Assembly: GCA_046536795.1 (NCBI GenBank)
Contig: JAWDMB010000003.1
Coordinates: forward strand, 35,645-99,644
DNA length: 64,000 nt
From: Candidatus Micrarchaeota archaeon
Lineage (GTDB): Archaea > Micrarchaeota > Micrarchaeia > Micrarchaeales > CABMGC01
Direction of reading: 5' to 3'
The notes under the pieces were generated by a model. It searched no databases, was not told where the DNA came from, and was given only the letters and a program-made list of their open reading frames with translations. Position numbers and translations under genes: made by a program. This document shows, in pieces, positions 35,474-55,565 of the stretch; position 1 is the stretch's first letter; each line of letters opens with the position of its first letter.

Positions 35474-37981
35474 ATGGAGGTTTTACCCAAAAAATATGAA
35501 CTTAAAATATATCCAGATGCCAAAAGCAAGAAGTTCAGAGGAAATGTAAGTATTTATACACAAATAATTGGATCAGCAAATAAAATAGTACTCAATGCTA
35601 AAGAGCTTGAGATAAAAAGTGCAGAAGTTATTTCAAATGGATCAAGCCAAATTCCGAAGGTAAAGCTAGATAAAGAAAAGCAGGAGCTTATTCTTGAGCT
35701 GGATAAGCCGGTAAAGAAAAATGCAGTTATAAAGATTGAATATGTTGGCATACACAACGAAGAGCTGTATGGGTTTTATCTTTCAAAATATAAAATGAAT
35801 GGAAAAGAAGAAACACTGCTTACAACACAGTTTGAATCTAGCGATGCTAGAGCTGCATTTCCGTGCTTTGATAACCCTTCAATGAAGGCTGTATTTGAGC
35901 TGACGCTTGTGATAGACAAGGAGCTAGAAGCAATATCAAACATGCCAGTAAAGAGTGTAAAGGTTATTGGAGATAAAAAAGAGGTGCTATTTTACCCAAC
36001 ACCCAAGATGTCAACATACCTGCTTTATATGGGTGTTGGAAAATTTGAATACCTTCAAAGCAGTCTTGGCAAACTAAAAATAAGGGTTGCCACAACTCCC
36101 GGAAAGCTCAAATATGCAAAGATACCATTATTGTATGCAAAGCAGTTTGTTTCGTTTTATGAAAAATATTTTGGCATAAAGTACCCGCTCCCTAAGCTAG
36201 ATTTAATAGCAATACCAGATTTTAGTGCTGGAGCAATGGAGAACTGGGGTGCAATAACATTTAGAGAGATAGACCTTCTTATAGATCCAGATAATACCTC
36301 CGCTAGCAGCAGAATAAATGCTGCAACTACGATTGCACATGAACTTGCGCACCAATGGTTTGGAGATCTTGTAACTATGAAGTGGTGGGATGATCTTTGG
36401 CTTAATGAAAGCTTTGCTACATATATGAGCAGCAAGTGTGTAAATGCTGTTTATCCAGAATGGAAGCTAAATCTTAATTTTCTTATAGATGAAGTATCAA
36501 CTGGAATGAGCGCAGACCAGCTTGAATCTACTCACCCAATAAATGTAAGAGTTAAATCGCCAGAGGAGATAGAAAGTATATTTGACAGAATAAGCTATGA
36601 GAAAGGGGGCTCAATCTTAATGATGCTTGAAGATTACGCTGGACCAGAAACATTCAGGAAGGGCTTGCATAGATATTTAAAAGAGCATGCTTATGGCAAT
36701 GCCACAAAGTTTGACTTATGGAATGCAATACAGAAAGAGGCAAACATAGAAGGTAAAAAGCTAAAGGTAGGCGAAGTTGCAAAGGCTTGGATAGAAAAGG
36801 CTGGCTACCCAATAGTAAAGCTTAGCAGAGCAGAGAAAGGTTACTCAATGGCGCAAGAAAGGTTCACTTTGCTAGGTAAAACAAAGAATGGCTTGTGGCC
36901 CATACCAATAACATACTTAGCTTATACAAAAGGAAAAAAGGATATTGCAAAAATCCTTTTTGAAACAAAAAACAAGCTAATAAATACAAAGGCAGAATGG
37001 CTAAAGCTTAACTTCGGCCAGAAGGGATTCTATAGAGTAAAGTATTATGATGAAATGCTTACCCTTCTTGGCGAAGCATATAAATCAAAGATTATAGATG
37101 ACGTTGAGGGCATAGGCATAGAAAGCGACTTGTATAATTTGCTTATAGCACGCTACATAAAGCTTGATACCTATCTTGACTTCATAAGAAATTATATGCT
37201 TGATACTGAGTATCCGCTCAACATGCAGATTGCAAATCACCTCACTGCTCTTAATACATTTACATATGGCATGGGAGTAAACCAAAAAGTAAGGGATGTA
37301 GCGCTTGCATATTTCAGAAACGCAATTAAAAAAATAGGAATAAATCCAAAGAAAAATGAAGATGAACCTACAAAGATATTCAGGGCTAAGGTTATAACAA
37401 GCCTCGGCTTTCTTGAAGATAATGAAATAAAGGATTTTGCAAAAAGAAATTTTGAAAATGCATTAAATGACAAGGTGGATCCAAATATAAGAAATCCTAT
37501 ATTCTTTGTTTCAGCATGGAATGGTGATAATGAGGTGTTTGAAAAAATAAAAGAGGCTTATTTGAAAGAAACACTTCCAGAAAAGAAGATATATCTTCTT
37601 GTATCCCTTGGCCTCTTTAGAGACAAGCAAATCTGCCAAAATGCACTAGCTTTTACCTTATCTAAGGATGTTAGGCTTCAGGATTCATTTTACATACCAA
37701 ATGAGCTTTCTTCAAATCCTTCTGGGAAGGATTTATTACTGCCATGGCTTAAGGAGAATTGGCTTTTGCTTAAAGAAAAATTCAGTGCAGGAACACACAT
37801 GCTACCAAGGTATGTAGAGACTCTTTCAACACAAAGAGGCTATGACAAGCTTAAAGAAATAAAAGAATTCTTTACAAGCAAAAAGAACTACACGCCAGCA
37901 ATAAAGAAAGAACTTAGAGAAACGCTTGAACACATAGAGATAAATACACTCTTCGAAGAGTGGCTAGGAAATAATTCTTGA
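35474..37981 (+). CDS. M1 family aminopeptidase (tricorn-interacting factor F2/F3-like)
   Basis: GAMENWG, HELAHQW...NES, YEKG motifs; ERAP1-like C-terminal region. Confidence 0.95.
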   Translation: MEVLPKKYELKIYPDAKSKKFRGNVSIYTQIIGSANKIVLNAKELEIKSAEVISNGSSQIPKVKLDKEKQELILELDKPVKKNAVIKIEYVGIHNEELYGFYLSKYKMNGKEETLLTTQFESSDARAAFPCFDNPSMKAVFELTLVIDKELEAISNMPVKSVKVIGDKKEVLFYPTPKMSTYLLYMGVGKFEYLQSSLGKLKIRVATTPGKLKYAKIPLLYAKQFVSFYEKYFGIKYPLPKLDLIAIPDFSAGAMENWGAITFREIDLLIDPDNTSASSRINAATTIAHELAHQWFGDLVTMKWWDDLWLNESFATYMSSKCVNAVYPEWKLNLNFLIDEVSTGMSADQLESTHPINVRVKSPEEIESIFDRISYEKGGSILMMLEDYAGPETFRKGLHRYLKEHAYGNATKFDLWNAIQKEANIEGKKLKVGEVAKAWIEKAGYPIVKLSRAEKGYSMAQERFTLLGKTKNGLWPIPITYLAYTKGKKDIAKILFETKNKLINTKAEWLKLNFGQKGFYRVKYYDEMLTLLGEAYKSKIIDDVEGIGIESDLYNLLIARYIKLDTYLDFIRNYMLDTEYPLNMQIANHLTALNTFTYGMGVNQKVRDVALAYFRNAIKKIGINPKKNEDEPTKIFRAKVITSLGFLEDNEIKDFAKRNFENALNDKVDPNIRNPIFFVSAWNGDNEVFEKIKEAYLKETLPEKKIYLLVSLGLFRDKQICQNALAFTLSKDVRLQDSFYIPNELSSNPSGKDLLLPWLKENWLLLKEKFSAGTHMLPRYVETLSTQRGYDKLKEIKEFFTSKKNYTPAIKKELRETLEHIEINTLFEEWLGNNS

Positions 37982-38377
37982 TATTCTAGCGAGCCTGTGC
38001 CCCTTTGCCTTAAGCTCTATCTCATAAAACATGCCAAAAGAGAGCCTGCACACATTAAACTTTCTATCCTCAAGCCTCTTTGAGAGCTCGTTAAGCATTT
38101 CTATTGCATCTTCTGGCTTAGCTAAATCCGCAAACAAATGGGCAAATGGATTTAATATGAGTGTATTAACCTTTAGTTGTGAAGCTATTGCTTGTATTTC
38201 ATTTACAGCTTTGTCTACTATATCTACCTTTTTCTCAACGTCGCTTTTCTCAAAACTTATAAAGAGAAGCAAGGCTTCGCCACATTCTACTCGCTTAGCC
38301 TCTTCAACAAGGCTTGAACGCCCATGCTCTGTTGGAAATGCCTTAAAGTAGTCAACATGCCAAGCCATGAACCTCAT
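37964..38377 (-). CDS. Free-standing archaeal threonyl-tRNA synthetase editing domain (DTD-like fold)
   Basis: MRFMAWHVDY, FISFEKSD, NPFAHL..DLA.P, FG...E..LKAKGHRLARISR match the archaeal ThrRS N-terminal editing domain; only 137 aa. Confidence 0.85.
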   Translation of the reverse strand: MRFMAWHVDYFKAFPTEHGRSSLVEEAKRVECGEALLLFISFEKSDVEKKVDIVDKAVNEIQAIASQLKVNTLILNPFAHLFADLAKPEDAIEMLNELSKRLEDRKFNVCRLSFGMFYEIELKAKGHRLARISRIIS

Positions 38378-39273
38378 AACACAACACCTTTGGCAAAGAG
38401 CCTTGGCTGCTTCTGTCTTATAAGGAAAAATTCATCTCCCTTCTCAAACGGTAAAGGCTTATCTAGTTTTAGCTCAGCGGTGTTGCCTTCTATCTTTTCA
38501 ACAAAGCAAGAAGTAAATGAGAAATTAATGGCAAGCCCATAGCTACTGCCTTCTTTGAGCTCACCTTCTACTATGCTAGATACCTTTAACTTCGCTGAGA
38601 TTCTATCTTTTGGGGTTATTGCGTTGCTTGCAAATATTTCACCTTTCTCTATCTCGTCTGCTTCTATCCCTTTTATCGCCAATCCGACTCTTGTATAAAG
38701 TGGTGCGAGATCAATATCTCTATCCTGGCTTTGTATTGACCTGACGAAAGCCTGCTTGCCACTTGATGCATAAAGGGTATCGTGCACAGCCACACTGCCT
38801 TTGCTGACTATACCTAGCACCACGGTACCAACACCCCTTACAACAAATGCCCTGTCTATATCAACACGCTTTTCTTTGCTATCTACGAGCTCTTGCTTTG
38901 GCTTAAATTCAACAATCTTGTCTAGAAGTTCTTCCTTAGCATATATCTCATAAGCAGCTATTCCAGCACTCTTTGCAAGGTTGCCAATCTCGTTATCATT
39001 TGTAAATATAACGCGCTTCTCTAGAAGGCCTGCGGCAACAAGCACTTCACCAAAATACCTATCTATGCTAGCTGTACTTATAACTATTTGGCTCGACATA
39101 AGCATAGATTGGGCAAGCCCGTAGGGTTTATCATCTATGCTTGAAGGCGCAAGAGCAACCACAACATTCTCGCCATACAGCCTGTTGTAGAAGGTTATAC
39201 TGTTTTCAGAACCTTTCTTACCTATAAAACCTGCTAGCTCCTTGTCAAGAGGTATTGAAATTATGAAGTGCAT
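38374..39273 (-). CDS. EF-Tu/SelB-like protein with degenerate G-domain
   Basis: Domain II signature IDRAFVVRGVGTVVLG...VRSIQSQD...RVGLAIKG; no GxxxxGK[ST] motif; start moved to ATG 39273. Confidence 0.78.
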   Translation of the reverse strand: MHFIISIPLDKELAGFIGKKGSENSITFYNRLYGENVVVALAPSSIDDKPYGLAQSMLMSSQIVISTASIDRYFGEVLVAAGLLEKRVIFTNDNEIGNLAKSAGIAAYEIYAKEELLDKIVEFKPKQELVDSKEKRVDIDRAFVVRGVGTVVLGIVSKGSVAVHDTLYASSGKQAFVRSIQSQDRDIDLAPLYTRVGLAIKGIEADEIEKGEIFASNAITPKDRISAKLKVSSIVEGELKEGSSYGLAINFSFTSCFVEKIEGNTAELKLDKPLPFEKGDEFFLIRQKQPRLFAKGVVL

Positions 39274-39435
39274 AATAGTATTTTTTGGAGCAAACTTATA
39301 AAGATAGATTGGATGAAATACCTTCTTCTTGGTACATGCAGCAACAATGATATGAAAGCACTCAATGCCAAAACTCACGTCAATGACGTTCTGCTTCCTT
39401 TACATCTTTTTCTTTGATAGATTTTTCAGTAACAT

Positions 39436-41689: not shown

Positions 41690-43426
41690 ATGGCTATACT
41701 TGGACTACACGATGCACACGATGCGGGCGCTGGTATTGTAAGAGATGGCGTGGTTTTGGGAGCGGTAAATGAGGAGAGATTTACAAGAAAGAAAAACGAT
41801 GTCGGCTTTCCTGAAAATTCTATAAGATACCTTATCAATTCACTAAAAGATGAAGAGATAGAAAAAATCGCGGTAGCATGGTATGGAGGAAGTGCTTTAT
41901 TTGCAAGAATATGGCCCGAGCTTGAGGTTAAAAGAAGAAAGCTTTGGAGAAAAGAAGTAGAAAAGCCATCAAGGCTAAGCATGCATGCTAGAAATGCTGT
42001 TTTCAGGCTTGTCCAAGACCAAAATCCAAAATGGCTCTGGAAGTGGCTTGGCGTTAATATAGGCTCTTATATCATTGCTAAAAAGCTTAAAAAGCTTGGA
42101 TTGGAAAAGAAGATTGAGTTTGTTGAGCACCATCTTGCTCATGCATCTTCTGCATATTATGCTTCTGGCTTTAAAGAAGCTCTTGTAATAACCCTTGACG
42201 GAGCTGGCGATGGGCTTAGCGGAACAGTTTCTATAGGAGACAACGGCGAATTAAAGAGAATAAATCAGTTTAAAGCAAGTGCAAGCATAGGCATACTCTA
42301 TGGCGCCGCCACAATTGCTTTGGATATGAGGTATAGTGAGGATGAGGGCAAGCTCATGAGCCTAGCTGCGTATTCTTATCCAGCAGAAGTTCCGGAGCTT
42401 AAGGAAATGCTGTATTATGATGAAAAAAGCAAGCAGCTTGTGAGCAGAAGTGGGATAAAATTTGAATACCTGCTTGCAGAATACATGAAAGACCACATAT
42501 TATGGAAATATAATAGAGAGGCTTTTGCATATGGTGTACAGAAGTATGTTGAAGAGCAGGTGCTGAAGATAGTAAAGCAGTACATTGAAGAAACAGGTAT
42601 AAGAAATGTAGCGGTTGCTGGAGGCTTTTTCTCAAACATAATAACGAATATGCTGATAAATGAACTTCCTGAAGTTAAGGACTTTTTTGTCTTTCCACAT
42701 ATGGGCGATGGGGGCTTAGCTCTTGGTGCTGCTTATTATGTAGACTTCAAGGAGCATGGTAAGTTTAACAAAAAACAGATAGATAACCTATACTATGGAC
42801 CAGAATACACAAACAGCGAGATAGAGGAGGTGCTAAAGAAGTATGCAAAAGAGAAAAAGATAAGATATGAGGAAAGAAAAGATATTGTAAAATACACAGC
42901 GGAACGTGTTGCAGAGAAGAATGACATTGTATTGTGGTTCCAGGGAAGAATGGAATACGGCCCAAGGGCTCTAGGAAACAGAAGTGTTGTTGCTTTGGCG
43001 AGTGATCCAGAAAACAGAAACAAGCTAAACATAATAATTAAGAGAAGACCATATTACCAGCCTTTTGCAAGCACAATCTTAGAAGAAGATGCTGAAGAGC
43101 TTCTTAGCCCATATTTAAGGCCAAATAGGTTTATGACTGTAGGCTATAAGGTAAAAAAGGAGCATTGGAATGACCTTGTCGCAGCTTCGCACATAGATGG
43201 TACAACAAGGCCACAGATACTTGGAAATGAGAACAAGAGGTTTAGAGAGCTTATAAAAGAAATAAAGAAAGAAACGGGCATAGGAGCTATTGTCAACACA
43301 AGCTTTAACAAGCATGGCGTGCCGATAGTCATGGATCCAGATTATGCTATATGGACTCTTCTAAATACAGGCTCGCAGTATTTGGCGATAGGAGACTTCT
43401 TTGTAGAGAAAGTGAATAAGGGCTAG
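41690..43426 (+). CDS. Carbamoyltransferase (NodU/CmcH/TobZ family)
   Basis: HDAGA, EERFTRKK, HHLAHASSAY, DGAGD, EGKLMSLA, GRMEYGPRALGNRS, RPYYQPFA, NTSFNKHG motifs. Confidence 0.95.
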   Translation: MAILGLHDAHDAGAGIVRDGVVLGAVNEERFTRKKNDVGFPENSIRYLINSLKDEEIEKIAVAWYGGSALFARIWPELEVKRRKLWRKEVEKPSRLSMHARNAVFRLVQDQNPKWLWKWLGVNIGSYIIAKKLKKLGLEKKIEFVEHHLAHASSAYYASGFKEALVITLDGAGDGLSGTVSIGDNGELKRINQFKASASIGILYGAATIALDMRYSEDEGKLMSLAAYSYPAEVPELKEMLYYDEKSKQLVSRSGIKFEYLLAEYMKDHILWKYNREAFAYGVQKYVEEQVLKIVKQYIEETGIRNVAVAGGFFSNIITNMLINELPEVKDFFVFPHMGDGGLALGAAYYVDFKEHGKFNKKQIDNLYYGPEYTNSEIEEVLKKYAKEKKIRYEERKDIVKYTAERVAEKNDIVLWFQGRMEYGPRALGNRSVVALASDPENRNKLNIIIKRRPYYQPFASTILEEDAEELLSPYLRPNRFMTVGYKVKKEHWNDLVAASHIDGTTRPQILGNENKRFRELIKEIKKETGIGAIVNTSFNKHGVPIVMDPDYAIWTLLNTGSQYLAIGDFFVEKVNKG

Positions 43427-45624
43427 CCGCTTGTAAATGTAATATTTGTTATACCAAAGTTGAGCCCATTTGAGTATGTTGTGTTTGGCGTTAAAAGTAT
43501 AAGCATATTAAGCCCTGGCTGAAGGCTCAAGCTAACAGAGTAATTCTCCGGATAAGGAGTAAGACTTATTCTTTTTACCAGATTATTTGCGGAGTTTAAG
43601 TATATGCCCATAGTTGAGCTACCACCATAGTACATTGCGGTAAAATTCATAACTATATTTGTGCTATTTTCTGGCACATATATTCCTATACCTCTTGCAT
43701 TGCTGCCCCACCACATGCTTGAGAATGTTGTGTTACAGAAAATAGATGTACAAAGGCTATAACCAGGAACCCAGGAACCTATAGTATATGCCACAATGTG
43801 CTTGCCAACATTATCTGCTATTGCTTTGCTTGTAGCGAAGATTATTGTACTATTTGACTGATAAACTGGATTACCTAACATACTATAGAGATAGCTAGCA
43901 AGCTGAAGAAGGTCTGTATAATTATATGCCTGCCTTATAATACCAATGAACCCAACATTAAGGCTTGCAAGTATGAAGAGGTTAAGCTGCGTATAATTTT
44001 CAATTATTGGATATGGGAAAGCAAGCTTGCCGGTATTACTTAGATAATCTGCTTCTACAGCTATTGGTATCTGCTCGACAACGCCTAGCTGCGTTTGGTT
44101 CATTCTTGTTGCGTACCCACCGACAAGCGGCTTCTGAAATGCTGTTTGATAATATAACTCAACCCCCATATATTTCTCTGGAGCTGCGCTAGTGTAGTTT
44201 GGCAGTGCGGGCAATATAAGCACTGAGAAATTGCCAGGTATTTGCCTTATATAATAATAAGCTTTTGGAATAATTGCAGGCGTTACCTGTGGCACAAAAT
44301 ATGCCCAATATTCTATTAATATAAGAATAGCAAATATACCAAACAAAATTTCTTTGCGGTTGCCACTAGACTTTTCTGATATAAATTTGAAACCAAATGC
44401 GGCAAGAACAGCTAAAGCAAGTACAGTAGCAAAGTCAAATCTACCAGGCTCTCTAAATACGTTAAGCAATGGTATATGGTGATATAGCAAATATAATCCA
44501 GGCAAAAGACCAGAGGTAGTTTCTGGAAAACCACTCCATCTTATATATGGGCCTAAAGAGAGCCATATAAAGAATATTGCTAAAAATAGCCATAGCCCTA
44601 TTTTTGCTAGCTCTTTTTTCTTATATGCAAGGTAAATAGAGGCTATTGCAAGGAACAAAACGCTATAGCCAATATACGCGGTGCCTTCAGCTGGATCTAC
44701 AACTGACTTTTGATAAAAAGCAGCGTAGCCATTTAAAGAGCCAAATATCGGGTTTATGTAAGAGGGCAAGAAGAACGAAGAGATTGTATCACTATATAGA
44801 ATGTTGTAAGGTATTGAACCTTGCGTGTTAACATAAGAGAGCACACCACTCTCAATGCCTTGTATCATCGGTATAAAACCTGGTGAACCAAGAACAAAAG
44901 AAAGTATGATAAAGAGCGCAAAAAGGTACGCGAACTTTCTGCTTAGTATATTCTTCCTTTCATTTTTATCAAAAAGAAGATAGTAGATCAAAATAAAGAA
45001 TGCAACAAGCGCAAGAAGTATTCCTTGTTCAACATCACCCATAAATACCGAGAGAACAAAAGAAATTGCAGCATAGAAAGCATATTTTATCTTTCTCTCC
45101 TTTATCATGAGAAGAAAGAAGAGGACAAATAGGGGTATAAATTCAGTATTGGTCCACTGCAAGTGACCTACGCTCTGCATTATATGCTCAGGGCTAAAGG
45201 CGAAGATTAACCCAGCAAGAAATGAACCAGGAATATTTCCTGTAAGGTATTTTGCGAGTATATATGTAAATAGACCTGATAAAACTATCCCTATTATTAT
45301 TGCTGTGTTCATCGCAAACGGCAGGCTTATGAGTTGCAAAGGATATGTTAATACGCCCAAGAGTGGAGCCATTGTTTGCGTTACTAAATTAGCTCCAACC
45401 GGATATAATATCAAATTTGTAAAATAAGGTGTTGTATGTAGATAAAATATTGCATAGTTCACCCACCAGAGATCCCATAAGCCTTGATAGCTATCACCAC
45501 CATAACCAAATGTAGAAGTTGTAAAATTTGCAATCAGCTGGGGGAACATAATAACTGCTACCAGCGCATAGGCAAAAAATACTAATACATATTCTCTAAA
45601 TTTTCTATTACCAATTGATAGCAT
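43423..45624 (-). CDS. Multi-pass GT-C-like (YfhO/ArnT-like) membrane protein with C-terminal external domain
   Basis: About 13 TM segments; GGDSYQGLW in the first loop, FREPGRF, YYQTAFQKPLVGGY; Asn-rich beta C-terminus. Confidence 0.72.
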   Translation of the reverse strand: MLSIGNRKFREYVLVFFAYALVAVIMFPQLIANFTTSTFGYGGDSYQGLWDLWWVNYAIFYLHTTPYFTNLILYPVGANLVTQTMAPLLGVLTYPLQLISLPFAMNTAIIIGIVLSGLFTYILAKYLTGNIPGSFLAGLIFAFSPEHIMQSVGHLQWTNTEFIPLFVLFFLLMIKERKIKYAFYAAISFVLSVFMGDVEQGILLALVAFFILIYYLLFDKNERKNILSRKFAYLFALFIILSFVLGSPGFIPMIQGIESGVLSYVNTQGSIPYNILYSDTISSFFLPSYINPIFGSLNGYAAFYQKSVVDPAEGTAYIGYSVLFLAIASIYLAYKKKELAKIGLWLFLAIFFIWLSLGPYIRWSGFPETTSGLLPGLYLLYHHIPLLNVFREPGRFDFATVLALAVLAAFGFKFISEKSSGNRKEILFGIFAILILIEYWAYFVPQVTPAIIPKAYYYIRQIPGNFSVLILPALPNYTSAAPEKYMGVELYYQTAFQKPLVGGYATRMNQTQLGVVEQIPIAVEADYLSNTGKLAFPYPIIENYTQLNLFILASLNVGFIGIIRQAYNYTDLLQLASYLYSMLGNPVYQSNSTIIFATSKAIADNVGKHIVAYTIGSWVPGYSLCTSIFCNTTFSSMWWGSNARGIGIYVPENSTNIVMNFTAMYYGGSSTMGIYLNSANNLVKRISLTPYPENYSVSLSLQPGLNMLILLTPNTTYSNGLNFGITNITFTSG

Positions 45625-45698
45625 CTGGAAACCCCATTCTGCATAAGAATAAAAACTATAAGAATGTTATATATAAATACCTAACTAGCGATGAAGCT

Positions 45699-46895
45699 AT
45701 GAAATCCAAAAGACCAAACATCTCAATTATTATATTAGATTCGCTTAGGCTTGATGCTTTCAAAAAGCTAGACGATGAAAAAGGCTTATTCAAAGAGTTT
45801 AAAAGAATAGAAGAATGCATCGCTCCAGCGCCTTGGACGCTGCCTTCACACGCTTCCTTATTTACAGGCATGTACCCTAGCGAGCATGGCGCGCACGAAA
45901 CCGAAGAGATTAAATCGCTCGACATAGAAAGAATAAAGCTCAGGAAAGAAACCTTTATAAGTGAACTAAGCAGGCTTGGCTACCATACCTATGCAATCTC
46001 AGCAAACCCATACGTGCATCCAATATATGGCTTTAACGAATTTGCTACTTTCATCGAAGAAACATATTTTACAGATGTTTTTGGAAGTGTTTTTGAAATA
46101 CCAAAAAGTGCAAAGGAAGTGGCTGCAAAATATAGAAATATTTATGGAAATAACCCCATAAAGATTGCAGGCTCCCTCATAAAAGAAAACCCAGCACTTG
46201 CTGCTGCGTTGATAGAAGGTATGCTATTTCTAACACCCATAAATATAGCAAAGAAGTTTAAGGCAAAGTTCATAGAAGGCTGGCCGCTTGAGAAAGGTGG
46301 CAAAAAAATAGTTGAAAAGGTTAAAAGGCTAAAGCTCAAAGAGCCGTTCTTTTTGTTCATAAACATGATGGAACCGCACGACCCATATATCGGTGTTAAG
46401 AAAGATGTAGACTGGTCGACCTCATTTATGAAGAAGAAGCCAGAAAAGAGGGCTGTAGAGTTATGGAAGAAGCTTTATTACAAAGCATCTGCTAAAGCGC
46501 TCGGGTATGCAAATCAAGTGGTGAATAATTTAGCTGAGAGATTTGGTGATAACCAGATAAACATAGTTACTTCAGACCATGGACAAGAATTCAATGAGCA
46601 CGGCTTTATAGGGCATGGAGTAATGCTTCACGATGAAATTGTCAAGGTTCCTTTTCTGCTTAAAATGCCAAGTTCATTTAATATCGAAAGAGATGGTAGA
46701 TATATCTCGCTTGTAAATGTAAAGAGCTTTATAGAAGAAGCTTTGTCAGGCAATAAAGATGCTGCAAAGAGACTTTATTCGGGCAGGATATACGCTGAGA
46801 GCTTCGGTATACCTGCAAATATGAGTATAATAAAAGGCATAGATAAAGCGAAGATAAAAAGAAATGAAAAATATAGAATAAGGGTATTTCAATAG
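45699..46895 (+). CDS. Sulfatase-like (alkaline phosphatase superfamily) hydrolase/transferase
   Basis: IILDSLRLD, PWTLPSHASLFTG, EPHDPY, TSDHG motifs; start taken at ATG 45699. Confidence 0.88.
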   Translation: MKSKRPNISIIILDSLRLDAFKKLDDEKGLFKEFKRIEECIAPAPWTLPSHASLFTGMYPSEHGAHETEEIKSLDIERIKLRKETFISELSRLGYHTYAISANPYVHPIYGFNEFATFIEETYFTDVFGSVFEIPKSAKEVAAKYRNIYGNNPIKIAGSLIKENPALAAALIEGMLFLTPINIAKKFKAKFIEGWPLEKGGKKIVEKVKRLKLKEPFFLFINMMEPHDPYIGVKKDVDWSTSFMKKKPEKRAVELWKKLYYKASAKALGYANQVVNNLAERFGDNQINIVTSDHGQEFNEHGFIGHGVMLHDEIVKVPFLLKMPSSFNIERDGRYISLVNVKSFIEEALSGNKDAAKRLYSGRIYAESFGIPANMSIIKGIDKAKIKRNEKYRIRVFQ

Positions 46896-46896
46896 C

Positions 46897-48123
46897 TTAT
46901 TCCACTATGCCTATACCACCAAACTTATTTTCTATGTAAAAGCTGAATCTGCCCATACTTTTCAAAATATTATATCTTTCGAAGGCGATATCTGATTCTA
47001 GTTCTAGATCCAAAATTCCTGCATTCAACGGTTCTATCAGGCTCTTTTTACTTAAAGCACCTGTTGTAGTATCTATGTGCTTTATTATGCTAAGCTTATT
47101 GCATTTTACTTCATTTCCTAGAACCCTTATGACTATTTTAGAGTTTGGCGTGAGCTTAGCTAAAGTAAAGATGAGTGCATTTAGTTTATTCGCTACTATC
47201 GGCTCTTCACCTTCTTTAGCGATCACAAGGCCACGTGGATTCTCTATATCTTTATCGAGTTCGATTGCCACACTAGAGCCTTCGCCTGCTTTAGCTACCG
47301 CCCTTCCTTTTAGGATTATCTTTTTTGCATATCTTTCTATATTGCCAGGAAAGAACGTTATTTTACCTTTCTCAATCTTACCGTTTAGTATCTTTGCACT
47401 TATTAGCTTTTTGTTGCCATCTTCTATGTATCCCTGCACTACCGCTCTCAACTTATTAAATTTATTTTTATCCTTTTTGCCTGCACCTTTGGTCATTCTA
47501 TAAAGCTCTTCCAAAAGAGGCATGCCCTTGTACCACTTCATTTTATCTGAGCGTCTTATTATATTCTCTCCATTATATGCGGAGATGGGCACATACCTTA
47601 TTATCCCATCAAATTTAATATTAGATAAAAACTTACCAATTAATTTTGTTATTTTATTGTATATGTTTTCATCATAATTTATAGTATCCATCTTGTTTAC
47701 TGCAACAATAAGGTTTTCTATGCCAAGCATCTTTGCAACAAAGACATGCCTTTTTGTCTGCTTTCTTATTCCTTCTCCGGGCTTAGCAGATACAAGGAGT
47801 ATGGCTGTTTCTGCAAAAGAAGCGCCACTCAGCATGTTCTTGATAAGCTCTTCATGCCCGGGAACGTCTATAAATTCAAATGCAAGATCTTTGTATTTAG
47901 CTTCGGCTCTTGTAGAATCAATTGTAAGCCCGCCTTTGCGCTCTTCTTCCAAGCTATCTAATATAAATGCAGGTTCAAATGACTTACCAAGCTTTTCACT
48001 ATATCTCTTAGCTTCTTCTATTCTTGTATTGCTGACAGAATTTGTAAGCATAAGAATGCTGCCTATTAGAGTTGACTTGCCGTGGTCTTTGTGGCCTAGC
48101 ATTGTAACGTTCTCGACAAGCAT
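46897..48123 (-). CDS. cysN: Sulfate adenylyltransferase subunit 1 (GTPase)
   Basis: GHKDHGKSTLIG, GLTID, DVPGH, NKMD, ISA motifs; directly downstream of cysD; no fused APS kinase domain. Confidence 0.82.
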   Translation of the reverse strand: MLVENVTMLGHKDHGKSTLIGSILMLTNSVSNTRIEEAKRYSEKLGKSFEPAFILDSLEEERKGGLTIDSTRAEAKYKDLAFEFIDVPGHEELIKNMLSGASFAETAILLVSAKPGEGIRKQTKRHVFVAKMLGIENLIVAVNKMDTINYDENIYNKITKLIGKFLSNIKFDGIIRYVPISAYNGENIIRRSDKMKWYKGMPLLEELYRMTKGAGKKDKNKFNKLRAVVQGYIEDGNKKLISAKILNGKIEKGKITFFPGNIERYAKKIILKGRAVAKAGEGSSVAIELDKDIENPRGLVIAKEGEEPIVANKLNALIFTLAKLTPNSKIVIRVLGNEVKCNKLSIIKHIDTTTGALSKKSLIEPLNAGILDLELESDIAFERYNILKSMGRFSFYIENKFGGIGIVE

Positions 48124-48131
48124 ATATTCAC

Positions 48132-48920
48132 CTACATGTAGCCAAGTGCCCTAAGTTTTTGCATCACATACTCTCTTTCTTTGTCCTGCTCTCTGCCTGC
48201 TCTTTCCTCTACATTAGTTGTTTTAAGCTCTTTTATAATATCATCTACAGTCTTTGCATTCGACTTTAGAGGCACAGTGCAATGCGTGCAGCCAAGGCTT
48301 CTATACCTAAACCCATTTCTAGAAAAGTATAATGGATTTACAGGTATGTGCTCCTTCTTTATGTAGTTCCATATGTCTATCTCATTCCAATCTAGGAGAG
48401 GGTGTATTCTAACATGTCCTTCATTTTCTATCTTTGAAGAATAATCATCCCAAAGTTCTGCAGGTTGGTCTTTATAGTTCCACCTGAAGTTCTTATCTCT
48501 AGGACTAAAGACCCTTTCCTTTGCCCTAACACCATGTTCATCCCTTCTTATAGATACAATTAATGCGTCAAACTTATACTGCTTCATCACCTTCTTGAGT
48601 GCCTCCGTCTTATTTGCACCACAACAACTAAAGCCCGATATTTCTGGCTTTATCTCGCTTTTTGCCACTATTAAGTTAAGTTTCCACTTCTTTGTAAGCT
48701 CCTCCCTAAACTTATAAGTTTCTGGGAAGTCTATCCCATTATCTATATGAATAACAGGAAAAGGCACCTTTCCAAGAAACGCCTTCCTTGCAAGTGCTAG
48801 CATTGTTGTGGAATCCTTTCCCATGCTCCATAGAGCAGCTATATTTTTGAACTTCGAACGCGCTTCTCTAAGTATAAATATACTCCTTTCTTCGAGCTCT
48901 TTTAGATTTTGTTCTATCAT
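48132..48920 (-). CDS. cysD: Sulfate adenylyltransferase subunit 2
   Basis: SMGKDS, RRDEHGVRAKERVFS, QPAELW, RIHPLLDWNE.DIW.YI, RSLGC, ERAGREQD motifs. Confidence 0.95.
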   Translation of the reverse strand: MIEQNLKELEERSIFILREARSKFKNIAALWSMGKDSTTMLALARKAFLGKVPFPVIHIDNGIDFPETYKFREELTKKWKLNLIVAKSEIKPEISGFSCCGANKTEALKKVMKQYKFDALIVSIRRDEHGVRAKERVFSPRDKNFRWNYKDQPAELWDDYSSKIENEGHVRIHPLLDWNEIDIWNYIKKEHIPVNPLYFSRNGFRYRSLGCTHCTVPLKSNAKTVDDIIKELKTTNVEERAGREQDKEREYVMQKLRALGYM

Positions 48921-48924
48921 TCTA

Positions 48925-49212
48925 TCACCATTTGTTTATATTGAGCAAACCCTTCAGGTATATGGTAGCACCTTCTACCCTCTTTCCGTTGACTCTCTTA
49001 AAAATCGGTACCTTTGTCACAAGCTTGCCTTTTGCATCAAATAGCTCTGCATAAGATTTGGTTAAATCTTCTGCATTTTTTAGTGTTACATAAACTATTC
49101 TGTAATATTTAATGCCTGATTTCTTGAGCGCTTTCGCAAACTTTTCCCAGTTTGCTTCGTTCGGCTCTTTTTGAAGTAAATCTGCTATTCTAATTATTTC
49201 GTCATTCTTCAT
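48925..49212 (-). CDS. Hypothetical protein in the RHH-cysDN operon
   Basis: ORF with a GAGGGAG SD lying between the RHH gene and cysD. Confidence 0.6.
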   Translation of the reverse strand: MKNDEIIRIADLLQKEPNEANWEKFAKALKKSGIKYYRIVYVTLKNAEDLTKSYAELFDAKGKLVTKVPIFKRVNGKRVEGATIYLKGLLNINKW

Positions 49213-49220
49213 TTTCTCCC

Positions 49221-49454
49221 TCAAATATAACCAAGCGCCTTCAGCTTTCTTGTAAGCTCATCTCCGGGCTTCGCCTTACCTTGCTTCTCTTCTTCTATCC
49301 TAGCAACTGTCTCCCTAAGTACATATGTCGCGTAATCAGAGACGGAAGAGAATCCGGTCTTTTCTATTACCTTTTCTATCCTTTCAAAAAGTGGGGTTGG
49401 TATTGTTATAGTTGTGTACTTTCTCTTAACACCTTTTTGCACATCTTTCTTCAT
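49221..49454 (-). CDS. Ribbon-helix-helix (CopG-like) regulator
   Basis: YTTITIPTPLFERIEKVI..TGFSSVSDYATYVLRE pattern. Confidence 0.85.
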   Translation of the reverse strand: MKKDVQKGVKRKYTTITIPTPLFERIEKVIEKTGFSSVSDYATYVLRETVARIEEEKQGKAKPGDELTRKLKALGYI

Positions 49455-49647
49455 GCTCTCACATTATATAGTTTAATGTTATAACATTAAAATATAAAAA
49501 GCTTTCTAATCTGCTTTTAGAAAGAAACATAAAAATAAAACTTAAGGAAAAAGAAAATTTATAAAGAAAATAGAAAAGATGAAGTAAGGATTAAATACTT
49601 TGTATTACACAATATTATTAATAATTTGAAACGAGCAAGCTGATTGT

Positions 49648-50690: not shown

Positions 50691-51431
50691 CTATTCAGTA
50701 AGAACTTTGTAGATATGCTCTACTTCTTGCATAAAGTCCTTGCTACGCTTATTTCTTGGATATCTTAGCCCTATTCTTTTAATCTCCTTAACATGTGAAG
50801 GCCTTTCAGATAATATCACAACCTTGCTTGAGAGTTCTACTGCTTCTTCAACGTTATGCGTAACCATTATGACAAGGCTTACAGGAGTATCTGGGCTTCT
50901 CAGCATATTTATCACATCACTCCTTAATGCCTCGGCTGTAAGCTCATCCAAAGAGCTGAAAGGCTCATCCATAAGAAGCACCTTTGGATCAGATATTATT
51001 GCTCTTGCTAATCCAACGCGTTGCTTCATACCGCCGCTTAGCATATTAGGATATGCATTTTCAAAACCTTCTAAACCCATCTTCTTAAATAAAAGCTTCG
51101 CTTTTCTTTCCTTCTCTTCTTCACTAATATCAAAGAGAGAAAGACCGAGCTTTACGTTCTCTATGTTTGTAAGCCATGGTAGCAGTGCAAAATCCTGAAA
51201 CACAAACGAAATATCCTTATTTGGTTTCTCTACCCGCACACCATTATATAAGACCTCTCCACGCAAAGGCTTTATAAGACCAGCAATAATCCTGAGCAGT
51301 GTACTCTTTCCGCAACCAGATGGGCCTATTATAGATACAAACTCATTCTTCATAGCTGTAAATGTTATATTTTCTATTACATGCACAGGTCCTATTGAAT
51401 AGCCTATATTTTTAACGTCAAGAAGGCCCAA
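50691..51431 (-). CDS. NitT/TauT-family ABC transporter ATP-binding protein
   Basis: GPSGCGKST, FQDFALLPW, LSGGMKQRVG, DEPFSSLD, VTHNVEEA motifs. Confidence 0.93.
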   Translation of the reverse strand: MGLLDVKNIGYSIGPVHVIENITFTAMKNEFVSIIGPSGCGKSTLLRIIAGLIKPLRGEVLYNGVRVEKPNKDISFVFQDFALLPWLTNIENVKLGLSLFDISEEEKERKAKLLFKKMGLEGFENAYPNMLSGGMKQRVGLARAIISDPKVLLMDEPFSSLDELTAEALRSDVINMLRSPDTPVSLVIMVTHNVEEAVELSSKVVILSERPSHVKEIKRIGLRYPRNKRSKDFMQEVEHIYKVLTE

Positions 51432-51439
51432 GCAAACAC

Positions 51440-52993
51440 CTATTTGTAAATCTCTTCAATTTTATTAAATAACCTTTTCCATACAAGCCTATTTATTACA
51501 ATTATCATTATTGTAAAGTTTAAAAGTGCAAGAAGCATAAGAACCATGTTGCCATTATCAAGCGATACGTCAAGGAGCTTTCCTATACCGATTGATACAG
51601 ATGTTAAGACAGCACCATTCCCAATTCCAGAGGAAGTAAAGTACTCAGCCACTATGCTTGCATTCCATTCTGCAGCTATGCCTGTAACAGCGCCTGTTAT
51701 TAGCCCAGGAACTATCGCATGGAGATATATCTTTTTCCATGCCTGCAAGCCCTTTATACCAAATAGTTTCTTTACCTCAAATATGCTTTGTGGAATGTAT
51801 GCTTTTTGCGAGAGTATGCTAAAGATAATATACCATATTCCACTAAGAAAATAAACAGAGAAGGCAACAGCTTCGCTATGAAAAGGCATTTTAACAAACA
51901 ACGAGACTATTAAAGGTAGCATTATTGTAGCAGGTATTGATGCTATTATTTGAAATAAAAGTATATAGGCGCTAAGCCTCTTTGAGAAAAAGATAAGATA
52001 AACACTGAGGGGAACCGAGATTAATAATATTACCGCAAATGCAAACCAAACTCTTGCAAATGATGCGAGAAGCGCTACAAGAATGCTTAGCTCATATGAA
52101 AATAAGGTTTTATTTGAAACAATAACTGCTACAAATAAAATTGCAAGTACTGCATAAACAAGATTTGCATATTCACTTTTCTTTGGCTTTATACCCACTT
52201 CATTGCTCAATGAATAGGTATCACGCTTTTTGCCAAATGCAAACTTTATGGGCATCCTTGCTTTTGGGATTTTAAATTTCAACTTTGACTTTATGAGATG
52301 CACAAAACAAATTGCATGCTTTTTTTGTATATAGCTCATGTTGTGTTTGTTAAAGTACCTTTCTAAAGGGGCGAAGAATAATAGCCTTGTTAATATTACA
52401 AATACAATTAAGATTAATATTCCCACAATATATTCGCTAAAATTACCGCTGAGTGCTAGTTGAGTTAATGCAACCCCAATGCCATGCTTTACCATAAATG
52501 TCTCGTTTGATGTAGAGAAGATCTCGCTTGTAACAAGGTAGAATAAGCCTATAGCCCAAGATAGGGTGGACTGGCTCATCACTTTTGGCATGCTTGCTGG
52601 TATATATATCTTGGAAAGCTTTTCCTTAAGGCCCATACCATATATAGCAGCAAGCTCCATAAACTCATGTGGCAACTCCTTTATCGATTCGTAAACCCCA
52701 AAAATTATGTTCCATAACATGCTCGTTATAATTAAGAATATTACAGCCGCATTTATTCCTATATATCCAGGAATTGCGGCAACTATAATGTATATTACAA
52801 AAGGGAAGAATGCGAGAATAGGAAGTGTTTGAAGTATATCTACTATTGGTATTATGACTTTCTCTGCTCTTCTGCTTGTTGCGGCCCATATACCTAAGCC
52901 GAGTCCTAGAAGGATAGAAAAGCCTAGAGCTATAAACATTCTAACCCATGAAAAAGAGATATCAATTAAAAGTTGCAAAATATAATCAAACAT
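51440..52993 (-). CDS. NitT/TauT-family ABC permease (duplicated TM domains)
   Basis: Two permease halves (DILQTLPILAF; QIIASIPATIM); ATG at 52993. Confidence 0.88.
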   Translation of the reverse strand: MFDYILQLLIDISFSWVRMFIALGFSILLGLGLGIWAATSRRAEKVIIPIVDILQTLPILAFFPFVIYIIVAAIPGYIGINAAVIFLIITSMLWNIIFGVYESIKELPHEFMELAAIYGMGLKEKLSKIYIPASMPKVMSQSTLSWAIGLFYLVTSEIFSTSNETFMVKHGIGVALTQLALSGNFSEYIVGILILIVFVILTRLLFFAPLERYFNKHNMSYIQKKHAICFVHLIKSKLKFKIPKARMPIKFAFGKKRDTYSLSNEVGIKPKKSEYANLVYAVLAILFVAVIVSNKTLFSYELSILVALLASFARVWFAFAVILLISVPLSVYLIFFSKRLSAYILLFQIIASIPATIMLPLIVSLFVKMPFHSEAVAFSVYFLSGIWYIIFSILSQKAYIPQSIFEVKKLFGIKGLQAWKKIYLHAIVPGLITGAVTGIAAEWNASIVAEYFTSSGIGNGAVLTSVSIGIGKLLDVSLDNGNMVLMLLALLNFTIMIIVINRLVWKRLFNKIEEIYK

Positions 52994-53087
52994 ACAAAAA
53001 CCCAATCAAACAATTAAAAAAACATATTTCGAAGCTTGTAGCACAACAATATTAATGTAAATAATTTTTATAAACTTAATATTGCAC

Positions 53088-55565
53088 TTATGTAACATTC
53101 AATATAGCACAATTTTGAGATAATATATTTATTACAGAGCTGTTCACAATATCGATCTGATGATAAGCGAGATAGTTGTAAAGGTTGCCAAAACCACCCA
53201 TTAGCTTTGTATTATTATAAGTTGCAAAATAACCGCCACATAGCTTCAATTGCTTACCTACCATATTCTGATTCGGTGTAATAACCCAGTGCACAAGAAG
53301 ATAATGATTTGGATCAAGATAAAAGAGCTGATGCGGCTCACCTATCTGTGTTATATAATTATACCATGGGCCGTTGTTTTGCACAAGTAGCATACCTGTT
53401 TGGTTTGCAAGCTCCACGCCATAGTAATGAAAGTTTATTAGCGGCTCGTGAATTGTCTGATTTAGATAATAGGAGGTTGCTGGATTTGCATACCACTTGA
53501 ATTCGCCGTAGAATATTACATTTACACTTACATACTCTCCAGGGTAAGCAGAACTTTTATTTAGTACAATGCTTACATTATCTACATGATTTACTACTGT
53601 AAAGTTTTCAAGTATGTTATTTGCTGGATTTATATAGCCAACACCTGTTAGATTAAAGTAATTGAAATTGAAATAACTTATTGTTGTGGTAGGAATTGTA
53701 GTTTGAGTTGTAGAATTTGCTACACTTATTGGCTTAATACTTCCGCCAGGCACATAATAAAGCTTAGCCCCAAACGGCTGTGAAACGCTTAATATTGAAG
53801 CATTTTTCATAGGGTAAGGATATGTAGGATAATATACAAGCTGCCAATAAGGACAGTACTTACGTGGATTTGGTGTATAATTAAGACCAAAATTCTGAAC
53901 ATACTTTGGTATTACTACGAAGCTCCCATTCGGTATTTCTCTGCAGTTCGGAATATTATCATAAGCAAAAAACCTGCCCATATTTTCAAACTTCATATAA
54001 ATGGGTAGGTTAGAGAACGAAGAAGAGAAGTAGATCTTTACATAGCTTGGGTAGTGCAAAAGATAATTTGCTATCGCAAGCTGATCGTATCGCTGATAAG
54101 CTAAAGTATTATATGCAAAAACATTTATCTGGAAAGATGTATATATTAAGAATATAAGCAGGAGCAAAACAGCAATTAGCATGAATGGCTTAGCTTTTTT
54201 GCTGAAATTTATAAGCTCTGCAAGCCCTATTCCAAATGTAACCACTATAGGTATACCAAGAACGGCAAGAAAACGCTGAAGTCTGTAGACAATTAAATAG
54301 TAAAAAGGATGAAGCGAGATGTGCATTGGACCATAATTTAGCAACAATAAGCCAAATAAGAATATAAAGAACGGCATATATATGCTAGTATTCCTTAAAA
54401 GGAACAGCTCTACAAAGAGTATAATAAATGGAATAAATGTAAGATAAAACAGTTTAGGTGGACATTGTGCGCTTATTATGCCAGTTGTGCAAGGAAGTGA
54501 ATTTTGTATAGGTACAAGATAATACAAATAAGCTAGTGATATTCCACCAATTATTAATACATATAAAAGCTTAGCCCAAGCCCTTCTTAGCTTTATTATG
54601 GGTAATATAAATGTTACAACAAATAATGCGTAGAAGAAAAAGCCAGAGAAAGAATTTACTATATAGTTGAAAGAAAGGTTATGACGCAGCAAGTTAAAGA
54701 ATAGGTTATAGTTAAACATTGTATTAAGATAAAATCGAGGGTCTATGTTGGTAGATGGTATATACCCCGTAGGACCAACAGTGCTATAGAAATTGTTATT
54801 CACCGATAATGTTATCAGCGGATTTCCACAATTTATATAGTTAAAGAGCATAAGGAGCAAACCAGCAAAAATTATACCATAAATTGTAAACAAAAAGACC
54901 TTGTCAAACTTAACCTTTCTTCTGAAGAGCTCTACTATAACAAAAAGAACGATAGCAAAATCTACAAGTAATGCTTCCGGAGTTATTAATATACTCCAAA
55001 CAAAGAAAGCACCAGACATGAAGTAATAAAGCCTAGAATTCTTTTCCTTGCCGTATAGGTAAAAGAGAAACACAATACCAACAAAGAACATAGAAGGTAT
55101 ATCATCGCTAATGGTTGGAGCAAGCATAGCCACATTTGGTATAAAAGCTAAAGAAAGCGCCGCTATAAGCCCGGCTGTAGAGCTATGAAGCTTTTTACCT
55201 ATCAAAAAAGCTATTATTATTGATCCTATAAAACTGATTATATCCCAAAGGGAGCTAGTTAGCATGCTAACTCCAAACAGAGCGTAAAATAGCGCTATTG
55301 GGTAGATTTGAAGAAGCCTTACACTAAATATATATGGGCTTTCATGAAAAATGTCGGCAAGCACAAAATAAGCCTCACCAAGATAGGCGGTATCATCGCC
55401 GTAAAAAGATGGCCCTCCAAGAAACATAACAGAGTAGACAATTGCGTATATAACGATTATGGATAATACAATAATATCCAATGGTATTTTTTTCTTTTTC
55501 TCCTCTGCTAGCAGACTCTTTTCTAGTTTTGCCTCCTTTTTAACTAACCTATCTAGAACCCCCAT
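53088..55565 (-). CDS. GT-C (ArnT/PMT, GT39/83-like) membrane glycosyltransferase with large C-terminal domain
   Basis: FYGDDTAY acidic first loop, many TM segments, DDIPS, C-terminal Cys/Asn-rich external region. Confidence 0.75.
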   Translation of the reverse strand: MGVLDRLVKKEAKLEKSLLAEEKKKKIPLDIIVLSIIVIYAIVYSVMFLGGPSFYGDDTAYLGEAYFVLADIFHESPYIFSVRLLQIYPIALFYALFGVSMLTSSLWDIISFIGSIIIAFLIGKKLHSSTAGLIAALSLAFIPNVAMLAPTISDDIPSMFFVGIVFLFYLYGKEKNSRLYYFMSGAFFVWSILITPEALLVDFAIVLFVIVELFRRKVKFDKVFLFTIYGIIFAGLLLMLFNYINCGNPLITLSVNNNFYSTVGPTGYIPSTNIDPRFYLNTMFNYNLFFNLLRHNLSFNYIVNSFSGFFFYALFVVTFILPIIKLRRAWAKLLYVLIIGGISLAYLYYLVPIQNSLPCTTGIISAQCPPKLFYLTFIPFIILFVELFLLRNTSIYMPFFIFLFGLLLLNYGPMHISLHPFYYLIVYRLQRFLAVLGIPIVVTFGIGLAELINFSKKAKPFMLIAVLLLLIFLIYTSFQINVFAYNTLAYQRYDQLAIANYLLHYPSYVKIYFSSSFSNLPIYMKFENMGRFFAYDNIPNCREIPNGSFVVIPKYVQNFGLNYTPNPRKYCPYWQLVYYPTYPYPMKNASILSVSQPFGAKLYYVPGGSIKPISVANSTTQTTIPTTTISYFNFNYFNLTGVGYINPANNILENFTVVNHVDNVSIVLNKSSAYPGEYVSVNVIFYGEFKWYANPATSYYLNQTIHEPLINFHYYGVELANQTGMLLVQNNGPWYNYITQIGEPHQLFYLDPNHYLLVHWVITPNQNMVGKQLKLCGGYFATYNNTKLMGGFGNLYNYLAYHQIDIVNSSVINILSQNCAILNVT

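Follow-up and report, generated by a model that had tools for sequence, protein, structure and literature searches.

The locus described here occupies positions 41690-49454 of the window, a 64,000-nucleotide stretch that spans C3:35645-99644 in a genome of 760 kb and 94% completeness. Public records name homologues of the window proteins as Candidatus Micrarchaeia or Micrarchaeota, which places the source among the DPANN archaea, in the order Micrarchaeales. The locus may encode a route of glycan sulfation that bypasses 3′-phosphoadenosine 5′-phosphosulfate (PAPS). Specifically, an autoregulated CysD-CysN pair (CysDN) would make adenosine 5′-phosphosulfate (APS), and a sulfatase-fold enzyme with a threonine nucleophile, here termed APsf, would use it to form a sulfated, carbamoylated glycoconjugate. 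We favor this chain as a whole tentatively, at slightly less than even confidence. CysDN sulfate activation and sulfatase-fold sulfotransferases are both of known kinds; what is new is their combination without a kinase. The first-pass annotation of the window had listed a carbamoyltransferase, a GT-C-like membrane protein, an alkaline phosphatase (AP)-superfamily enzyme, and an operon of a ribbon-helix-helix (RHH) gene, a hypothetical gene, cysD, and cysN. Calling of open reading frames (ORFs), profile searches (Pfam and curated family hidden Markov models with cut-offs), and AlphaFold2 (AF2) models searched with Foldseek confirmed each of these genes in place. The interpretation attached to them, a surface-glycan decoration system like that of nodPQ and nodU, was supported in part.

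CysD (48132-48920, minus strand), the catalytic PP-loop subunit of heterodimeric ATP sulfurylase, is present as a 262-residue short form. It scores 313 bits against PRK05253 (cut-off 195) and stays under the cut-offs of the narrower models TIGR02039 (234 vs 397) and PRK12563 (231 vs 413). It matches PDB 1ZUN_A with an E value of 3e-54 and is collinear with Pseudomonas syringae CysD up to the GYF terminus, save for a deletion of about 33 residues (1ZUN 232-264). The SxGKDS, RRDE, and GY[FM] motifs of the family, here SMGKDS, IRRDEH, and the tail LRALGYM, are kept in 21 of 21 relatives. In these motifs, and in the pairing with an EF-Tu/EF-1alpha-like GTPase, the micrarchaeal system resembles Escherichia coli CysD-CysN, the P. 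syringae pair of 1ZUN, and rhizobial NodP-NodQ. Aside from the deletion, it differs from 1ZUN in having exactly four invariant cysteines, C99, C100, C211, and C214 (CC...CxxC; 21 of 21 sequences), which are not present in bacterial CysD and which fall opposite the CC and CxxC in an alignment to the APS-reductase domain of P0126, a fusion protein described below. In APS reductases these cysteines ligate a [4Fe-4S] cluster, and the alignment therefore suggests that Micrarchaeales have a candidate Fe-S form of CysD. Our literature search found no published description of an Fe-S CysD, so the form would be previously undescribed.

The partner is a CysN-like GTPase of the EF-1alpha family (46897-48123, minus strand; GTP_EFTU 141 bits) with no APS-kinase domain. 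Its G1 (GHKDHGKST), G3 (DVPGH), and G4 (NKMD) motifs are intact. It falls under every CysN and EF-1alpha cut-off (TIGR02034 221 vs 336, PRK05124 213 vs 590, EF-1alpha 259 vs 502), and these scores place it on a divergent branch that lies between CysN and EF-1alpha. The gene lies downstream of cysD in 18 of 20 neighborhoods. Its product has 31-89% identity among relatives, far below the conservation of CysD, which was found in 54 of the 61 related genomes searched with 48-97% identity (70-97% in all but two), a range equal to that of archaeal elongation factor 1A (aEF1A) in the same genomes.

These features could also fit an Fe-S PP-loop enzyme that adenylylates a substrate other than sulfate and acts with the GTPase and hyp99, the hypothetical protein encoded between the RHH protein and CysD, in, for example, a thiolation-type or nucleic-acid or cofactor modification. 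Such a role agrees with the invariant CC...CxxC, foreign to characterized bacterial CysD; with the scores under the TIGR02039, PRK12563, and all CysN cut-offs, and the slightly better score of the GTPase against EF-1alpha; with the aEF1A-like conservation; with inteins inserted in CysD relatives; and with the lack of a sulfate-pathway partner. We nevertheless consider it improbable. A homologue search over 1.8 billion cluster representatives included the same CC...CxxC short form fused to APS reductase/CysH (P0126) or to APS kinase (P0130, P0136), and a further short-form relative fused to CysN domains plus APS kinase (P0143). Because of these fusions, the short form is tied to sulfate chemistry. 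The score above the PRK05253 cut-off and the collinearity with 1ZUN, tail included, argue in the same direction. We did not use the conservation of CysD as a sign of an essential non-sulfate role, since CysD/NodP evolves very slowly in bacteria too. Hence, we infer that CysD with CysN is a sulfate adenylyltransferase making APS.

Enzymes that would normally receive this APS were sought in 61 genomes, this one included. No credible match to APS kinase (PF01583) was found by profile search in this genome and 60 relatives. Sulfotransfer_3 (PF13469) and Sulfotransfer_1 (PF00685) were each found in 0 of 61, with Sulfotransfer_2, 4, and 5 outside the search, and sulfite reductase (NIR_SIR) was found in 0 of 61. 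This genome has no PAPS_reduct family member besides CysD, a family that was not tallied in the relatives. The absence of APS/PAPS reductase, sulfite reductase, APS kinase, and sulfotransferase, first noticed for the vicinity of the locus, thus holds for the whole 760-kb genome and, for all but PAPS_reduct, for the relatives as well. An assimilatory pathway was rejected for lack of CysH in this genome and of sulfite reductase in all 61 (cysteine synthase was not searched), in keeping with the earlier view that sulfate activation here is not assimilatory. The parallel drawn with nodPQ and NodH breaks down at the kinase and sulfotransferase steps, and the cysC and PAPS sulfotransferase that the first-pass annotation had expected elsewhere did not turn up in the genome search. 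Compared with CysDN and NodPQ, the micrarchaeal operon has no APS-kinase domain on CysN, no CysC, and no NodH-type sulfotransferase, and it adds a tailed RHH protein and hyp99; what it keeps in common with NodPQ is a proposed use in decoration, not assimilation. As APS kinase, Sulfotransfer_1/3, and sulfite reductase are missing from the 61 genomes and a second PAPS-reductase-family gene from this one, both assimilation and PAPS-dependent sulfation of the NodPQ-NodH type are unsupported in these genomes.

PAPS-dependent sulfation or partial assimilation might instead run through unrecognized non-homologous or host enzymes, the neighboring genes being unrelated. DPANN archaea rely on hosts for many steps, partial "APS pathways" have been annotated in DPANN surveys (PMC8407392, PMC8091004), and this genome has small P-loop kinases of uncertain specificity. 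The empty searches across 61 genomes speak against such an arrangement, and the two weak PF01583 matches in this genome look by inspection like a cytidine monophosphate (CMP)-type nucleotide kinase and a MinD/ParA-type ATPase. Moreover, we know of no instance of APS or PAPS passing between cells. We regard a hidden PAPS route as having a low probability.

By our analysis, the most likely consumer of APS is APsf, a candidate APS-dependent sulfotransferase. The gene (45699-46895, plus strand) encodes an AP-superfamily enzyme of sulfatase fold (Pfam Sulfatase 59 bits, Phosphodiest 26 bits). Translation probably begins not at the TTG at 45615 but at the ATG at 45699, which gives 398 residues as in the orthologues. 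The protein is soluble/cytoplasmic by inspection, with neither a signal peptide nor a membrane segment evident, and its orthologues are named "sulfatase-like hydrolase/transferase" by NCBI. In place of the C/S-x-P-x-R motif of S1 formylglycine sulfatases, APsf has T-L-P-S-H, which aligns with the C-S-P-S-R of the S1 sulfatase 6pt4. Residues D14, T47, D293-H294-G295, and H306 are each at least 97% conserved among 122 family sequences. Because the formylglycine motif is replaced and the catalytic residues are conserved, APsf is predicted to be an active-type enzyme of the superfamily with a Thr nucleophile and not a classical sulfatase. A second Thr-type sulfatase-fold paralogue (C1:265967-267403; 478 residues, motifs YTVPTH and SDHGQ) is encoded in this genome and in most related genomes; here it lies downstream of a 402-residue gene resembling, by inspection, archaeal S-adenosylmethionine synthetase, which is not a glycan context.

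The closest functional precedent comes from Halobacterium salinarum, in which gene deletion and heterologous expression identified membrane-bound Agl30 (VNG1056C) and cytosolic Agl31 (VNG1057C) as N-glycan sulfotransferases of the AP-superfamily sulfatase fold (Zaretsky et al., 2025, mBio, PMC11980604). They are the first archaeal glycan sulfotransferases identified; the paper names no sulfate donor, and neither the nucleophile nor a mechanism was reported. Like APsf, both are sulfatase-like AP-superfamily proteins encoded among glycosylation genes, with S1 carbohydrate sulfatases as the nearest solved structures. Agl31 is soluble, as APsf appears to be, and the two act as transferases, not hydrolases. 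For APsf, the observed glycosylation context consists of glycosyltransferase family 4 (GT4), carbamoyltransferase, and GT-C genes and of glycan clusters. APsf itself has Thr-x-P-S-His, and its gene is in physical linkage with a CysDN operon where the genome has no APS kinase, which points to APS as its donor. In Haloferax, sulfation of a dolichol phosphate (DolP)-hexose requires Agl7 (PMC3892788). The AP-superfamily enzyme, which in view of Agl30/Agl31 (PMC11980604) seems the most likely sulfotransferase of the locus, had been overlooked in that role by the earlier reading.

We inspected the linkage of these genes in two ways. In 20 neighborhoods of 15-20 kb each, RHH-hyp99-CysD-CysN is the constant unit and is found in most. 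A survey with the RHH gene as marker returned 206 loci in species-representative genomes, of which 80 species loci were kept and viewed over ±4 kb. Barring a few without name or probably mis-binned, these carry Micrarchaeota labels, and the cultured Ca. Micrarchaeum sp. A_DKE is among them. CysD is present in 73 of the 80, CysN in 70, and hyp99 in 68. The sequence extends beyond cysN in 66 of them, and an AP-superfamily gene shares the locus in 47 of these 66. The 47 divide into 23 of the APsf type and 24 of the NPP type (PF01663); the two types never occur together, and the NPP-type enzyme holds the place of APsf in other genera. GT4 glycosyltransferases occur in 21 loci of the survey and lie directly beyond cysN in five genera, and in several genera CarbT-APsf-GT4 or NPP-GT4 arrays, CarbT being the carbamoyltransferase, converge on cysN. 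APsf-GT4 pairs or operons occur far from CysDN too.

APsf orthologues are present in about 25 of 61 relatives and adjoin CysDN in about 17. In most genomes of the same family APsf adjoins cysN, with the carbamoyltransferase adjacent in a subset; in the window, APsf and cysN are convergent with 1 nt between their stop codons. The adjacency to CysD is retained in a rearranged locus (G023) and beside a second CysD paralogue (G057). A more distant lineage (L049) has a hyp99-like gene, a CysD of 56% identity, and an AP enzyme of 28% identity with the same WTLPSH motif, and this triad sits inside a glycan cluster with RmlABCD (rhamnose), GT2, GT1, and DUF2079 genes. The glycan-decoration part of the first-pass annotation is therefore upheld by the repeated linkage of the operon with an AP enzyme, GT4, and carbamoyltransferase and by the L049 cluster, and the conserved linkage it called for is found in the core and in the AP gene. 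It does not hold for the five genes as one system, the GT-C gene being adjacent within the genus only: they are not one conserved unit, and the conserved core is RHH-hyp99-CysD-CysN.

A chance juxtaposition of five unrelated housekeeping or envelope functions would agree with the mixed orientations, with the genus-level linkage of the GT-C gene, and with the tendency of compact genomes to bring unrelated genes together. As an account of the whole locus it is very improbable, for CysDN with AP, GT4, and carbamoyltransferase genes recurs across dozens of genera, after rearrangements, and in the glycan cluster of a distinct lineage. Chance is thus largely refuted for these genes and stands for the GT-C gene only.

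Whether the linked AP enzymes act on sulfate is a separate matter. Thr-nucleophile AP enzymes such as NPP, LtaS, and EptA classically transfer phosphoryl, phosphodiester, or phospho-alcohol groups, and APsf might for this reason handle phosphate, not sulfate. LtaS, EptA/MCR-1, and OpgB are metal-dependent sulfatase-fold Thr transferases that form a covalent enzyme intermediate and move the group onto a glycan or lipid; they have a membrane anchor and, working outside the cytoplasmic membrane, take phospho-alcohols from lipids. APsf shares their fold and Thr nucleophile, but it lacks a membrane domain, and its linkage is to APS synthesis. On a phosphate-based account, APsf and its NPP-type substitutes would handle phosphoryl, phosphodiester, or nucleotidyl groups in a glycoconjugate pathway that depends on GT4, for instance by dephosphorylating a sugar phosphate or transferring a phospho-alcohol or adenosine monophosphate (AMP). 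Their adjacency to CysDN would then reflect shared regulation, chance conservation, or the use of APS as AMP donor. The Thr nucleophile and the His in place of the sulfatase Arg, as in NPP/LtaS/EptA-type enzymes, are in line with this, as are the bona fide PF01663 proteins in the same genomic slot, the APsf-GT4 pairs distant from CysDN, and the second Thr-type paralogue in an unrelated context. We judge the account unlikely. It would leave APS without any consumer, and in Halobacterium proteins with a sulfatase fold have been proven to be sulfotransferases (PMC11980604). Moreover, the presence of two AP subfamilies beside CysDN in 47 of 66 species, with an adjacency that survives rearrangements, would be difficult to account for if no substrate were shared.

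Several further observations weigh against APS-dependent sulfation by APsf. The CysD copy within the L049 glycan cluster has its PP-loop and RRDE motifs substituted (SMGKEST, GRGEDE) and may not be catalytic. About 15 of the 54 CysD-bearing relatives lack an APsf homologue at E≤1e-10, in a search limited to APsf homologues, NPP-type enzymes not having been searched genome-wide. A_DKE has RHH-CysD-CysN without hyp99 and without an AP gene within 2 kb, and APsf is therefore not the sole APS consumer. Finally, the neighboring genes are convergent with the operon, not co-directional.

In one genus, a HIT-family protein is encoded directly downstream of cysN (L036 12122-12760; G039). Some HIT proteins hydrolyze or phosphorolyze APS, and this one could be an alternative APS-handling enzyme.

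The operon starts with the gene of the RHH-like regulator (49221-49454, minus strand), a 77-residue protein without a Pfam match. Its conserved core, RKYTTITIP...TGFSSVSDYVTYxLRE, includes the TTITIP strand and a helix pattern. The conserved strand-helix-helix pattern and the conserved palindromic operator support a tentative assignment as ribbon-helix-helix-like. The 14-bp perfect palindrome AATGTTATAACATT (49475-49488) has a TATA-like box on either side and precedes the RHH start codon by about 20 bp. It occurs once in the window (0.04 expected) and once in the 760-kb genome even when one mismatch is allowed. It is identical in the 49 loci examined and stands directly upstream of the RHH gene in the RHH-centered ones. 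We presume it to be the putative operator for autoregulation by the RHH protein, and since it is unique in the genome and conserved at this place, the regulator appears to control this operon alone. The protein ends with KL[RK]ALGY in 19 of 19 loci (KLKALGYI in the window copy). The variants of this tail, KL[RK]ALGY[IVAM], resemble the [KR]LR[AS]LGYM tail of CysD, which in the window reads KLRALGYM and aligns with the GYF terminus of 1ZUN; both tails are kept order-wide. By mimicking the tail of CysD, the regulator may sense the enzyme complex.

Between the RHH gene and cysD lies hyp99 (48925-49224, minus strand), a lineage-specific orphan of 99 residues. Its reading frame shares 4 nt with the RHH gene and stops 4 nt short of cysD, and hyp99 is therefore probably an accessory partner of CysD. 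Its family comprises 107 proteins, none of which has a Pfam domain, and all members with a source name are labeled Micrarchaeota or "Marsarchaeota". The AF2 model is confident (predicted local distance difference test, pLDDT, 86), yet it has no match in PDB (best E 0.9), and no function was assigned from the fold. The hyp99 copy of L049 (25% identity) is again directly upstream of a CysD paralogue.

CarbT-A (41690-43426, plus strand), one of three paralogues in the genome, is an O-carbamoyltransferase of the NodU/CmcH/TobZ family. It has the Kae1-like N domain and the Carbam_trans_C domain of that family (Carbam_trans_N 145 bits, cut-off 24; Carbam_trans_C 171 bits, cut-off 27), known members of which place carbamoyl groups on sugar hydroxyls in glycoconjugates or antibiotics. 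With 99 bits against an equivalog cut-off of 1000, CarbT-A is not an orthologue of NodU. It is a co-directional neighbor of APsf in four loci (L027, L029, L033, L051), and in other genera it is the first gene of a CarbT-APsf operon, with or without GT4, that is convergent with cysN. Across genomes, 18 have both genes, 7 and 7 have one alone, and 29 have neither (Fisher p 6e-5, not corrected for phylogeny).

The 733-residue multi-pass membrane protein (43423-45624, minus strand) has no Pfam match of its own; Micrarchaeota widely encode homologues, and many of these contain PF19830. The AF2 model, built with 34 sequences, has a pLDDT of 82.8 and a predicted template-modeling score (pTM) of 0.80. 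In a Foldseek search of PDB, the top 21 matches are all GT-C (E 1e-9 to 7e-6), and matches include STT3, AglB, PglB, AftD, DPY19, and ALG12 (E 1e-9 to 1e-3, template-modeling scores 0.4-0.47), with E about 1e-9 and scores of 0.43-0.47 for STT3, AglB, PglB, AftD, and DPY19. According to the model, the protein is a membrane glycosyltransferase of GT-C fold. Its C-terminal β-sandwich matches carbohydrate-binding modules (CBM35/36-like) and is rich in N-x-S/T sequons. D44 is at least 90% conserved and is placed by the model in the region of the first loop; Q47, W53, and W54 are invariant. The multi-pass N-terminal fold, the acidic residue near the first loop, and the C-terminal soluble domain are shared with AglB/STT3/PglB, AftD, DPY19, and YfhO/DUF6311-type GT-C proteins. 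It differs from solved GT-C structures in having only 11-13% identity with them and, by inspection, no WWDxG oligosaccharyltransferase signature. The gene is syntenic within the genus only (L024-L026) and is a recent genus-level addition to the neighborhood.

In the chain that we favor, the RHH protein would first bind the AATGTTATAACATT element of its promoter. With the CysN GTPase as its driver, CysD would adenylylate sulfate to APS, as family membership, intact motifs, and fusions in the clade suggest. As neither APS kinase nor a PAPS-type sulfotransferase nor sulfite reductase is present in Micrarchaeales, and this genome lacks an APS/PAPS reductase, APS itself would be the end product that is handed on. 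APsf, or the NPP-fold enzyme in its role in other genera, would then move the sulfuryl group from APS onto Thr47 and from there to a hydroxyl group on a sugar of a glycoconjugate, either soluble or linked to a lipid. This glycoconjugate would be built by the co-operonic GT4, and CarbT-A would O-carbamoylate the same or a related molecule. Lastly, the GT-C enzyme, inserted in this genus, may act outside the membrane, where it would transfer the product or extend it. From the handing on of APS to the last step, the chain is drawn from gene context and from the Halobacterium sulfatase-fold N-glycan sulfotransferases.

Aside from the locus itself, other genes of the window and of CysD relatives deserve mention. 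About 1.2 kb upstream of the RHH gene, an ABC transporter (50691-53005) of the NitT/TauT type (taurine/sulfonate/nitrate, SaoA-like) has an unusually long permease of 521 residues. It was considered as a sulfate importer and rejected, being NitT/TauT-like, under all equivalog cut-offs, and syntenic within the genus only. Another large glycosyltransferase of the membrane is probably encoded at 53088-55565, where a protein of 825 residues weakly matches LA_3751/LA_3752, a family of putative glycosyltransferases. A free-standing archaeal editing domain of threonyl-tRNA synthetase (37964-38377; 137 residues) overlaps the stop codon of its upstream gene, and the 334-residue protein encoded upstream of it (38374-39378) has SelB/EF-Tu domains II-III only (selB 77 bits) with no recognizable G domain. 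ARAGORN predicts a tRNA at 4733-4818 with an undetermined anticodon ("ga" at position 35), which may contain an intron or be otherwise unusual. Inteins with LAGLIDADG and splicing domains interrupt several short-form CysD homologues (P0123, P0127, P0148, P0149, P0177), and in one Micrarchaeota genome a free-standing LAGLIDADG-like ORF (L051 9428-10135) lies between cysN and cysD. The 665-residue protein P0154 (L045 1474-3471) joins an N-terminal domain of about 390 residues with an SDHG motif to a CysD domain. It was rejected as a Rosetta-stone fusion of AP and CysD, because its N-terminal 388 residues match Sulfatase at E 0.25 only and have no BLAST similarity to APsf, and is kept only as a weak hint. 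Its contig of 6 kb, with mostly small ORFs lacking a Pfam match, looks phage-like, and the protein may be a viral AP-CysD fusion.

Sulfated N-glycans and glycolipids of archaea have been known for about 40 years. The locus yields a testable proposal of how such molecules may be made, with APS from a kinase-less CysDN as donor, a Thr sulfatase-fold enzyme as catalyst, and GT4 and carbamoyltransferase as partners. If true, the PAPS-independent route would supply two missing pieces, the donor and the mechanism, for glycan sulfotransferases of archaea that are of the Agl30/Agl31 type. Its extension to Micrarchaeota in general, and further to many archaea and some bacteria, is rather doubtful; on that view, a short-form Fe-S CysD and a CysN-like GTPase, with hyp99 in Micrarchaeota, would make APS for a Thr-type AP enzyme, either sulfatase- or NPP-like, that sulfates sugars of surface glycoconjugates, and a tailed RHH repressor would sense the complex through the peptide it shares with CysD. 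For enzymology, the locus offers as leads the Fe-S-type CysD, its orphan partner hyp99, and a regulator that mimics the tail of its enzyme. DPANN surveys simply record "sulfate adenylyltransferase" and "arylsulfatase" genes as widespread (PMC8091004, PMC8407392), and the surface layer protein of Ca. Micrarchaeum harzensis A_DKE is glycosylated (bioRxiv 10.1101/2021.04.28.441871). A role of the modified glycans in host recognition or virus evasion, as raised by the first-pass annotation, is speculation. Such surveys routinely take the "sulfate adenylyltransferase" and "arylsulfatase" genes as signs of sulfur cycling or assimilation; a module for cell-surface decoration is the more likely reading, and it bears on how host-dependent cells present themselves to hosts and viruses.

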